From Elusimicrobiota bacterium (GTDB lineage: Bacteria > Elusimicrobiota > Elusimicrobia > Elusimicrobiales > UBA9959): a stretch of 22,295 nucleotides of DNA. Position numbers: made by a program. The DNA is taken from assembly GCA_037137395.1 (NCBI GenBank), contig JBAXKK010000039.1, forward strand, positions 1 to 22,295. The letters are read 5' to 3'. Shown here in pieces: positions 18,801 to 21,800 of this stretch (position 1 is its first letter; the number at the start of each line of letters is the position of its first letter).

Positions 18801-21800
18801 CTCCAGTTTTGGACGGCACATAGGCGTTACCTCGTCATACGCGGCCTTTATCGCTCCCCTGGAACACATTTCAGCCCGCCTGCACGCCATCGGCCAGCAG
18901 AACCGCAAAGCTCTTGACGGTAAGCCATGTAGCGCCTTCATAATGATCAACGCCCATGCCGGCATTAAGACCGGAGAGGATGGTTCGACGCACGCGGATC
19001 CGCAGCCGCTGCAACTTCTGGAAGGCAATTTTCCTAAAGGTGCGCTCATCACCCTGACACCCTGGGAACCAGGAGAAGTATGGCCGCTTCTGGCTTCAGC
19101 GCTGAACCGGCGCCCTTCTGTAATCGCCCCGTTCGTCACCCGCCCCGCTGAAAAGGTTATAGACCGCGCCGCTCTCGGCCTCCCCCCCGCCGAAGAGGCC
19201 GCCAAAGGTGTTTACTATTTATTGAGGTCCAATCCCAAAAAGCCCCATCGCGGCACCGTAGTTATCCAGGGTAGCGGGGTGGCGTCAGTATTCGTACACG
19301 AAGTGCTGCCGAAAATAAAAGAAGCCGGCATCAACATGAACGCGGTTTATGTTACATCTAAAGAACTTTTTGAACTTCTGGATGCGGAAGAGAAGGAAGC
19401 AATATTCCCCGAAAAGTCAGCCATGGAAGCCATGGGGATAACCGACTTCACGCTGCCGACCATGTATTATTGGGTCAGGTCCGGTGATGGCATAGACCGC
19501 ACACTTCACTCTTTTAAAAAAGATCGCTATCTCGGCAGCGGTAAGGTCGCCGAAGTGCTTAAGGAAGCAGGGTTGGACGCCGTCGCGCAGTTCACTGCTA
19601 TTGAAAACTACGCCGCTTTTATAGCGGGTTCGAAAAAATAACGGAGGTAACATCATGATGATCCAGGTTCAGGAAAAGCCCTATCTCACAGGCCGCGCCT
19701 TTATGTTTAGTCTCAGCAAAGGTGAGGACCTTCTGCAGGCGGTTCAGTATTTCTGCCATCACCATCAGGTCCGCTGCGGTCTCATAAGCGCCATAGGGGC
19801 CGTGGAGCGCGCCACCTTCGGCGTATATGACCAGAAAGCCAAAAAGTATATAAAGATCAACATCGAAAAAGAGATGGAAATATTATCGCTCTCCGGCAAT
19901 GTCAGCCTCTTTGACGATAAACCCATGGTTCACGCGCATATCATGTTTTCCGATATGGAAGGCAAAGCTTGCGGCGGCCATCTGATGGCCGGCACCAAGG
20001 TTTTTAGCCTGGAAGTTTTCATCCAGGAACTCACCGGGGACCTGAAGGTCCGCAAGCTTGAGAAGGTCACTCAACTGCCTCTCTGGACCAATCCTCTTTG
20101 TTTTAAATAAAAAGAGAATATGGCTTCAGCGAAGACGGCGTCGCGGACAGGCGGAGCTATATCGCAGAGGGAAAATTGACACCAAAAATCGATAACACTA
20201 AACGGGGAACCGTCGGCCATCGCCTTTACTCCGCCCTGAATATAAAGGCGGCGAAGTGACCCGGGAACCATCTTCTTTTCGGGCGGGATTTGTAGCTATA
20301 ACGGGCCTGCCCAATGTCGGCAAATCCACGCTCCTTAACGCCCTGCTCGGGGCCAGGCTTTCGATTGTTTCGCCCAAACCCCAGACCACCCGCAACAACA
20401 TTATGGGTATCCTGAACACCGCCGGACATCAGACGGTGTTCGTGGATACGCCTGGAATGCTGACCCCCCGCAACCTTTTTGAGAAAAGCATGTCAGGCGC
20501 CATAAAACGCGCGGCGGCTGAAGAAAGCGACCTTGCGCTCCTGCTGGTAGAGCCACGCGTCCCGCCGGCCGACAAGCTGGAATTCTTTGAGAAATTCAAA
20601 TTTATCTCAGCCCCCTTGTATCTGGTAGTGAATAAAATGGACCTGGCCGGAAAGGGCTCGGCGGAAGCTGCCAGGACCGCGGAATTCTTTTCCGCGTCGC
20701 TCCCCGTAAAAAAAACTTTTTTTCTGTCAGCGCTTGGCGGGGCCGGAGTTAAGGAGCTCAGGGAAGATATTCTCTCAGCGATGCCGGAACATCCTGCATA
20801 TTATCCGGAGGACCAGATAACCGACCGCTGGGAGCGATTCTTCGCGGCGGAGGTTATACGCGAGCAGATCTTTAATCTTTTTTCGGAGGAGATCCCCTAC
20901 GCCTCAGCGGTGGAAATTGAAGTGTTCAGGGAGACAGAAGATATGCCGGACTATATTCTGGCGGCGATACATGTGGCACGGCCCACGCAAAAGCCTATCA
21001 TCATCGGCAAAGGCGGCAGGCAGATACGCATTCTGAGGGAGAAAGCCCAGACCGCGTTGGAGAAATTTCTCTGCCGGCCCGTGAAGCTCGAATTACAGGT
21101 CAAGGTAACCCCGGACTGGCAGAATAACCCGCAATTCCTGCAGGATATCGGCTTTTATGAAAAAAAGCAGCGTTGATTTATTTTACGCCCTGGCGGTTTA
21201 CGCTGGAGTCTCGGTTCTTTTTATCACCGTGCAGTTAGTTTTTTCCGGCGCGCTGATCTACCTGCTTTCTCATACCGTAAGCGCGCGCCTGTTAAAGGCT
21301 GCCGCGTGCGACTCCGCGGGTTTCGCCTTCCTGACGGCAACCAGCACTGTTCTTCAGTATTTTCTCGCAAGCCTGCTTTCCCACAATCTCAGGGGAGGTT
21401 TAGGTCTTTCAGGCATAATTTTTTTCTCCGCCGCGATATCTTCCGCTTTTTTCCTCAGGCTGTCGGCACACTCCGCTTTTAGCTCCTATATGTTCGCCGT
21501 CTTACCCCTGATCGTTTCCTACCTGCTGGGTGCAATGATGGGTCTGCTTCAGAAAGAATCCGACAATCCCTTCCGCAATTCCAAATTTAATATTTTCAGG
21601 ATAGACTGACACCGCGCTTTTACTAAAACAAAGCCGAGCGACCATAAAATGCGTAAGTTTTACGGAGGGGTGGCCCCCGACTGGGCATCCCGCGACTTCT
21701 ATACCAAATAAACCACTAGGCCCAGGCATTTTCTCACTTCCAGAGGCCGGGTATGGCGGCCGAACAATTACCGCAGAGACCCTTACCCTTTTTTGTGACT

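Follow-up and report, generated by a model that had tools for sequence, protein, structure and literature searches.

Window gene and the search for Der in the source genome

The window, that is, the whole stretch of 22,295 nucleotides analysed here, belongs to an Elusimicrobiota genome (UBA9959; the source genome, G000), whose contigs are given C numbers below, and f numbers are the codes of families in the phylum sample. The gene from which the analysis departs is the following:

20256..21176, plus strand: era, 306 aa, with a G domain and a type II KH domain (NCBIfam PRK00089)

Its product scored 308.9 bits with the equivalog model PRK00089 (cut-off 237) and carries a KH_2 domain at 212-289 (50.5 bits), and the EngA model covers its G domain only (99.9 bits, cut-off 306.7). 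The earlier note had listed this gene as a single-GTPase paralog merely grazed by the Der model, and it is indeed a full member of the Era family, an ordinary 30S-maturation GTPase with nothing unusual about it. It is no remnant of Der and serves only as the anchor of the finding, which concerns the absence of Der (EngA). Der is a ribosome-assembly enzyme, and laboratory bacteria die without it.

In the source genome, the best match to the EngA profile TIGR03594 reached 102.9 bits, below its cut-off of 306.7. When an HMM of 37 Der sequences from Elusimicrobiota was searched unfiltered (--max) against the 23,557 six-frame ORFs of at least 50 aa, its top score was 78 bits, on MnmE, and an HMM of the C-terminal domain from the same phylum gave a best E-value of 0.69. 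PF14714, the KH-like domain that is C-terminal in Der, had no match, and no ORF spanned both halves of either TIGR03594 or the phylum-built HMM, as tandem GTPase domains would. Thirteen GTPase-like matches were found, all from families other than Der, and one more weak match was an ABC-F ATPase:

GTPase-like matches: Era, MnmE, HydF, HflX, FeoB, YchF, RF3, BipA, RsgA, IF2, ObgE, LepA and EF-G

With every match assigned to another family, neither a split Der made of two separate GTPase genes, an escape route that the earlier note had named, nor an orphan or substitute GTPase was present among them. Considering that this assembly (174 contigs, 98.9% completeness and 7.7% contamination) also lacks matches for EF-Tu (tuf), uS10 and uL10 in tblastn searches with Escherichia coli proteins, as well as 23S rRNA, absence in this genome alone is weak evidence; it is the gene order of contig C65 at hflX-plsY, where the ancestral slot is empty, that settles the absence of der claimed for it.

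Clean deletion of der from a conserved operon

In Der-bearing relatives, der lies in an operon with the order mutS-pilZ-mutL-miaA-hflX-pgsA-der-plsY-gpsA-HU-merR, and it was upstream of plsY in all 18 Der-positive loci fetched, directly adjacent in 17. The corresponding region of the source genome is outside the window:

C65, 4151-5134: miaA
C65, 5298-6638: hflX
C65, start near 6689: plsY, with pgsA-der missing upstream and gpsA and HU following

Here, plsY starts about 50 nt after the hflX stop, and pgsA has been relocated to contig C83. Among 41 Der-less loci from 18 families, the source genome included, plsY was directly preceded by pgsA or hflX in 36: by pgsA in 22, with 5-74 nt between aligned ends, and by hflX in 14, with 22-172 nt, the latter group containing the source genome. 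Unrelated DNA of 0.7-1.3 kb occupied the slot in three loci, and two were rearranged. A Der pseudogene or remnant was found at none of the 41 deletion sites. The named isolate Elusimicrobium simillimum Sma112, from a slow-growing genus, has the order miaB-pilZ-miaA-hflX-plsY-gpsA-HU, and it is one of five named Elusimicrobia genomes, none of which had a Der above the cut-off. These loci show that der was present in the phylum ancestor within this operon and was later cut out cleanly, leaving no remnant.

Distribution of Der across the phylum

TIGR03594 was surveyed in 261 phylum genomes that were at least 80% complete, with about six candidates scored per genome, and Der exceeded the cut-off in 88 of them. 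It was absent from all 103 genomes of the order of the source genome (22 of f1 and 81 of its sister family f2) and from the 36 genomes of f4-f11, and present in f3 (5/5), f12 (1/1) and f14 (65/70). Outside the class, Der-less families were also identified (f17, 0/10; f23, 0/9). PF14714 was detected in only 14 of 331 class genomes, namely 13 of 14 in f3 and the single f12 genome, with none in the other 316. Thus, two models concur on the absence of Der, TIGR03594 and the GTPase-independent PF14714. The Der-less group spans free-living and gut bacteria. The Elusimicrobiota assignment is based on the earlier note, on a protein carrying that label which is identical to the Der of G222, and on named neighbours. 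The claim that der and truA are truly missing is borne out over most of the class (for TruA, 0/145 genomes), but the statement that the class Elusimicrobia is Der-less goes too far, given that f3 and f12 keep der and that Der-less families exist outside the class.

It could be argued that these absences merely reflect gaps in the assemblies or a Der so divergent that the models miss it. The source assembly, in 174 contigs, lacks even tuf and 23S, the phylum search scored only about six candidates per genome, and Der was missed in 5 of the 70 f14 genomes. Nevertheless, the loci are contiguous and empty across 18 families, Der is also missing from two single-contig genomes of the order (G064 and G242) and from a named isolate, PF14714 agrees independently of the GTPase domains, and the unfiltered search of the source genome was negative as well. 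We therefore consider the chance of such an artefact to be close to negligible: synteny already refutes it for the 18 families, and it stands solely for f16 and f34. These two families, with one genome each, were left out of the losses, being uninformative because plsY is also missing from both assemblies.

Number of losses

Trees were built from RpoB (52 and 30 rows), from the four flanking proteins (39 rows) and from their concatenation (27 rows); these trees carry no inferred root, and several rows have biased composition. In the RpoB, flanking-protein and concatenated trees alike, the Der-positive f3 and f12 are nested among Der-less families, and in the concatenated tree the Der-less f10 is their sister (support 98/98). 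The starred branches of the 27-row concatenation force three Der changes, a single change occurring in 0 of 200 bootstrap trees, and a single Der-less clade is rejected under LG+G4 (p-AU 1e-52). Besides, when 24 sequences from outside the phylum are included, the phylum's own Der proteins group together as a single clade (100/99), and its subclades agree with the species tree. For the f12 Der, no closer outside donor was found among 8000 scored candidates, and identity falls from 47-54% to 38-41%. Since the one-loss topology is rejected and the surviving Der proteins are the phylum's own, we strongly infer three or more losses of der, or five to seven if the best tree is followed, with sister lineages having kept a vertically inherited copy.

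A history with a single loss of der, close to the base of the lineages that are not f14-like, and two later regains through in-place recombination, one in f3/f12 and one in f15/f19, would be equally parsimonious (three changes), and support for the deep branches that separate those clades is weak. However, such regains would demand that der be reinserted twice into its exact former slot between pgsA and plsY, with the genes on either side tracking the species tree, and each retained Der subclade is long-diverged and lacks a near donor, so that this history seems quite improbable.

Other assembly factors

Further factors were sought in a panel of 80 phylum genomes, unless another number is given. 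ObgE was detected in 79, the sole miss being a fragmented Der-positive genome, and RsfS in five of five genomes tested, in addition to the source genome. EngB was found in 31 genomes, none of them among the 16 from the order of the source genome, and in all six of the Der-less f7. RbgA was absent from five of five genomes tested. HflX is present in 159 of 261 phylum genomes and in 39 of 81 in f2; in the other 42 it was not found, including some genomes that are 98% complete in 7-8 contigs. Taken together, the order of the source genome has gone furthest: Der and EngB are missing, as is RbgA where it was looked for, and HflX is often absent as well. The factors and ribosomal proteins (r-proteins) kept in the source genome are as follows:

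Factors: ObgE, HflX, BipA, LepA, RsgA, RbfA, RimP, RsfS, RsmA, RsmG and an RlmD-like protein
R-proteins: uL1 (46% identical to that of E. coli), bL9, uL16, bL27, bL28, bL35 and bL36

Its r-proteins are mostly of ordinary length. By tblastn and gene order, it lacks RlmE, RsmB and uL30, and bL33, bL32 and YqgF had no tblastn match in this assembly, which also lacks EF-Tu and 23S. The absence of ClpX, RimM, RsmB and RlmH from this genome, reported in the earlier note, was confirmed by tblastn with E. coli proteins, which did not detect Ffh either. RlmH was found in none of 5 genomes tested, Der-positive ones included. ClpX exceeded its cut-off in 39 panel genomes, among them all 13 sampled from f3, f4, f9, f10 and f12 and none from f1, f2, f5-f8 and f11, and RimM in 10, with the C-terminal half alone in 21 more. 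Ffh was above the cut-off in none of the 80, Der-positive families included.

None of EngB, RimM, ClpX, TruA or Ffh tracks Der. Extensions of ObgE or bL27 that track it were not found either, and 26 aligned ObgE sequences showed no Der-linked change. The losses are uncoupled, f3 and f12 having Der and no TruA and f23 having TruA (9/9) and no Der (0/9), and the proposal of one deep, joint rewiring that would take in the missing SRP is not supported.

Loss of truA and SRP

The absence of truA from the source genome was upheld, with no PF01416 match and a best E-value of 0.37 for an HMM built from eight phylum sequences. TruA was matched in 31 of the 261 phylum genomes, none of them among the 145 of the class, the Der-positive f3 and f12 included; outside it, 8 of 70 f14 genomes had a match. 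The loss of truA is, therefore, a separate, class-wide event that is uncoupled from der. Nor is the gene universal in bacteria, as had been assumed, since truA and SRP are also absent from Parcubacteria (Nelson and Stegen 2015, PMC4508563).

In the TruA-less order of the source genome, U39 was found in 3 of 43 tRNAs in the source genome and 3 of 45 in G064, compared with 9/46, 10/43 and 8/46 in the TruA-positive relatives G067, G063 and G030. It is not reduced in the TruA-less G122 (7/46) and G041 (7 of 38 recovered tRNAs, 44 listed). Fisher tests, which serve only as description since the genomes are related to one another, gave p 0.007 for 27/135 (TruA-positive) against 6/88 (source genome and G064) and p 0.6 for 27/135 against 14/84 (the other TruA-less genomes). 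In the order, tRNA-Tyr and tRNA-Leu-CAA have U31-A39 and both tRNA-Lys have C31-G39. The U31-A39 pair is no peculiarity of the source genome, being also carried by tRNAs Phe, Trp, Cys and Ser-UGA in TruA-positive relatives, and the order is set apart only by tRNAs Tyr, Lys and Leu-CAA and by the Arg-ACG loss. The tRNAs tolerate the loss of truA, and U39 is largely replaced in this order; the compensation is partial, given that the TruA-less G122 and G041 keep seven U39 each. Three RluA-family synthases and TruB remain in the source genome, and one of them could act at tRNA positions 38-40.

Similarly, Parcubacteria lack truA and ffh and have less U at tRNA position 39, in their case in tRNAs Lys, Met and Phe, with tRNA-Tyr as the exception there (PMC4508563), whereas tRNA-Tyr also lacks U39 in the order of the source genome. 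The TruA loss described for Parcubacteria (PMC4508563) differs further in that other Elusimicrobiota families retain TruA. Regarding SRP, it is already in print that few Elusimicrobia carry Ffh/FtsY (PMC7987157); the Elusimicrobia passages of that paper treat SRP and SecY alone, and here the absence of Ffh (0/80) proved independent of Der status. The truA and SRP losses are thus mostly of known kinds.

23S rRNA in Der-less and Der-positive lineages

We compared columns 1640-2700 of 48 23S rRNA sequences, 33 Der-less and 15 Der-positive; the sequence of G175, which resembles that of another family and may be contamination, was kept in the counts. The H76-78 segment (E. coli 2090-2200) measured 111-114 nt in all 48 (111 nt in E. 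coli), which excludes an H78 loss or shortening of the CPR kind. No column in this range separates the two sets; in the best one, 2668, its G also occurs in the Der-less f4, f10, f16 and f18. The 23S rRNA of G064 matches the Rfam consensus within the part of the alignment examined. Insertions in the rRNA, considered as possible helpers, occur in Der-positive (f3, f15 and f24) and Der-less lineages alike and are absent from 1640-2700 in most f2 sequences. A state shared across the phylum consists of C2111 (47/48), U2144 (46/48) and G2147 (47/48). In E. coli, U2111 contacts H105 of EngA during H78 folding (bioRxiv 10.64898/2026.02.15.706057). C2111/U2144/G2147 is a lead and not a signature of Der loss, being unspecific because Der-positive members share that state, as do many CPR sequences, among which C2111/G2147 is common in one part of the H76-78 alignment of PMC12641178.

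Completing the 50S subunit without Der

In cryo-EM of E. coli precursors, YihA, EngA and ObgE appear as placeholders that follow one another, EngA overlaps with ObgE on H89, and the later states are held by ObgE, RsfS, YjgA and RluD; a second EngA site at H59 clashes with SRP (bioRxiv 10.64898/2026.02.15.706057). Neither RbgA nor YphC is essential in every case (PMC11754645). Against this background, Der may be a timing placeholder that restrains H68-69 and the P-loop and props up H89, rather than the catalyst of an otherwise impossible step. The EngA step (and that of YihA) would then be skipped and the 50S subunit completed by the late route of the ObgE-RsfS-RluA/D type alone, slower or less efficient folding being accepted with no dedicated substitute for Der. 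Our preferred reading, to which we assign a probability of about 0.55, combines an ancestral der, its repeated clean deletion and this inferred route, in which ObgE-RsfS carries out late 50S maturation with no Der placeholder. ObgE alone is insufficient for the E. coli ribosome, since assembly in vitro gave no detected activity when EngA was left out or ObgE was used by itself (PMC13278734), and something in the Der-less lineages must therefore differ.

One candidate for this difference is a non-homologous factor acting on Der's footprint (the E site, the P site, the L1 stalk and H89), such as HflX, an ABC-F protein or the tail of RsfS. In favour of HflX, its gene is still beside the deletion in 39 of the 41 Der-less loci, but it is ruled out as a required stand-in by the 42 of 81 Der-less f2 genomes in which it was not found. 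The ABC-F ATPase gene of the source genome lies just upstream of bipA, a tandem also found in 8 of 10 metagenome loci with a BipA at least 79% identical (one 100%), and Uup overexpression partly suppresses the 50S defects of a bipA deletion (PMC6723617); the pair was nonetheless not seen in the other 70 loci, 57-59% relatives included. The RsfS of the source genome and of G064 carries a long Lys/Ala-rich tail of about 95 aa, yet the long tail is missing in the Der-less f17 and f23, and the Der-positive f3 also has a short basic tail. As none of the three covers all Der-less clades, a takeover of the footprint appears unlikely.

Alternatively, a change in the 23S rRNA or in an r-protein, fixed in the phylum ancestor, may have removed Der's kinetic trap and permitted its repeated loss. 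That der was lost repeatedly within one phylum, when more than 99% of non-CPR bacteria retain it (PMC12641178), points to a permissive background common to the phylum. The phylum-wide C2111, U2144 and G2147, where E. coli U2111 contacts H105, would fit it, as would the phylum-wide lack of Ffh in view of the clash between SRP and the H59 site, and the Der-less Paceibacteria/Parcubacteria likewise lack SRP and TruA. Against it, no 23S column in 1640-2700 separates Der-less from Der-positive sequences, H76-78 is of full length in all 48, C2111/G2147 is common in CPR as well and thus not specific, and the r-proteins of the source genome are mostly ordinary in length. We regard a ribosomal change of this kind as about as unlikely as a footprint takeover. 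A broader proposition, to which we would give somewhat less than an even chance, is that culturable bacteria outside the CPR, whose L1 stalk and peptidyl-transferase RNA are of the standard kind, rely on ObgE as the sole assembly GTPase of the essential class (Der, EngB and RbgA being absent, and HflX too in half of one family), a permissive trait of the phylum having allowed at least five der deletions. Such a trait, if real, would reveal what makes Der essential in other bacteria and by what means a ribosome can be built in its absence.

Comparison with CPR bacteria

The assumption that Der is universal in bacteria was already at odds with the literature, since more than 99% of non-CPR genomes have der but just 38% of those from the CPR do (Amikura et al. 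2025, PMC12641178). According to that paper, the Der-less CPR classes are Paceibacteria, Dojkabacteria, WWE3 and Microgenomatia, their Der loss accompanies the loss of uL1 or H78, and no other phylum showed such factor repertoires; the paper treats it as an open question how these CPR cells manage without Der, the loss being tangled with that of uL1/H78. Its main text does not contain 'Elusimicrob', though four Elusimicrobiota genomes are in its dataset, and its Fig. 2a heat map may already display the Elusimicrobia loss. Title listings from an open-access library held no earlier report of Der or TruA loss in Elusimicrobiota. What is well supported is that an essential assembly GTPase has been lost cleanly, and more than once, outside the CPR, with the L1 stalk intact, Der-keeping sister families and a named isolate. 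Elusimicrobiota thus offer natural paired contrasts between Der-less and Der-positive sister families in which the L1 stalk is intact, and named isolates of one genus provide a bench organism for asking, for example by cryo-EM of pre-50S particles, how the ribosome is finished without Der. These bacteria also bear on the design of minimal cells and self-assembling ribosomes.

Among the mutual-information partners of der reported in PMC12641178 (rlmH, rlmD, rsmA, yqgF and rluB), RlmH is missing here even from Der-positive genomes, an RlmD-like protein and RsmA are present in the source genome, and YqgF is without a tblastn match there. As in the CPR, der is absent and obgE retained, and the source genome also lacks RimM and uL30. 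In contrast to the CPR, H78 is of full length throughout the Elusimicrobiota sequences compared, and the source genome has uL1 and keeps Era, RbfA, RimP, RsfS and RsmG. Moreover, the Elusimicrobiota losses occurred several times beside Der-positive sister families, include a named isolate and are found in a phylum with genomes of 1.2-4.6 Mb.

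Gaps in conserved gene order

In the genome under study, G000, gaps appear at conserved positions in gene order, as listed with two other loci:

contig C30, 3-4595: contiguous tig-clpP-lon, clpX absent
contig C3, 3363-4410: rpsE running directly into rplO, with uL30 absent from its usual slot
contig C14, 19274-23162 (locus L566): ABC-F ATPase gene directly upstream of bipA
contig C7, 5615-6235 (locus L572), and locus L562: RsfS gene with a C-terminal Lys/Ala-rich tail

The absence of clpX from tig-clpP-lon is a second clean deletion in this genome, besides that of der, and ClpX is also absent from the single-contig genome G030. 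The order rpsP-KH protein-trmD in G000 likewise lacks an intervening rimM. Across the phylum panel of 80 genomes, the C-terminal half is the sole matching part of RimM in 21, including all sampled members of family f14, and the open frames with this half-length match are mostly 90-156 aa long.

The C-terminal extension on RsfS, about 95 aa long, Lys/Ala-rich and histone-H1-like, is present in G000 and in G064, a genome of the same order. Basic RsfS tails also occur in f3, a family that keeps Der, and in the Der-less families f10 and f17, but are shorter than those of G000 and G064. The ABC-F-bipA arrangement is conserved only in close relatives of G000.

Other genes in the window and duplicated genes

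564-6652: pyruvate:ferredoxin oxidoreductase (minus strand), then an NfnAB-type transhydrogenase-like pair (plus strand; judged by eye)
10205-10728, minus strand: small gene pair, putative RelE/ParE-type toxin-antitoxin module (by eye)
17203-19641, plus strand: transketolase-like protein, 812 aa
21157-21609, plus strand: hydrophobic ORF, 150 aa, overlapping the era stop

The 812-aa protein scores far under every transketolase cut-off (best 144.7 vs 488 bits), and the 150-aa ORF has no match in Pfam or NCBIfam. Elsewhere in G000, nusG-uL11-uL1 occurs twice (contigs C6 and C138), and the TapT-like and RlmN genes are present in two copies each, which may reflect the 7.7% contamination of the assembly.

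Ribosomal RNA and tRNA

Each of the four 23S genes of f3 (L185-L188) carries an insertion of 359-379 nt in the H89 region, close to E. coli positions 2457-2466. Further insertions lie near 1917 in family f15, near 1931 in f16 and f28, and near 2263, 2500 and 2594-2605 (f9, f7). The H63 region is enlarged in f17, f20 and f26, at 110-117 nt vs 34-66 nt elsewhere (L158, L161, L168, L183, L200). The 23S rRNA gene and rpoB share a strand in many of the phylum's genomes, with rpoB following a few kb downstream.

In the tRNA sets of G000 and G064, Arg(GCG) and Arg(UCG) stand in place of tRNA-Arg(ACG), and this replacement suggests a putative loss of inosine-34 decoding.
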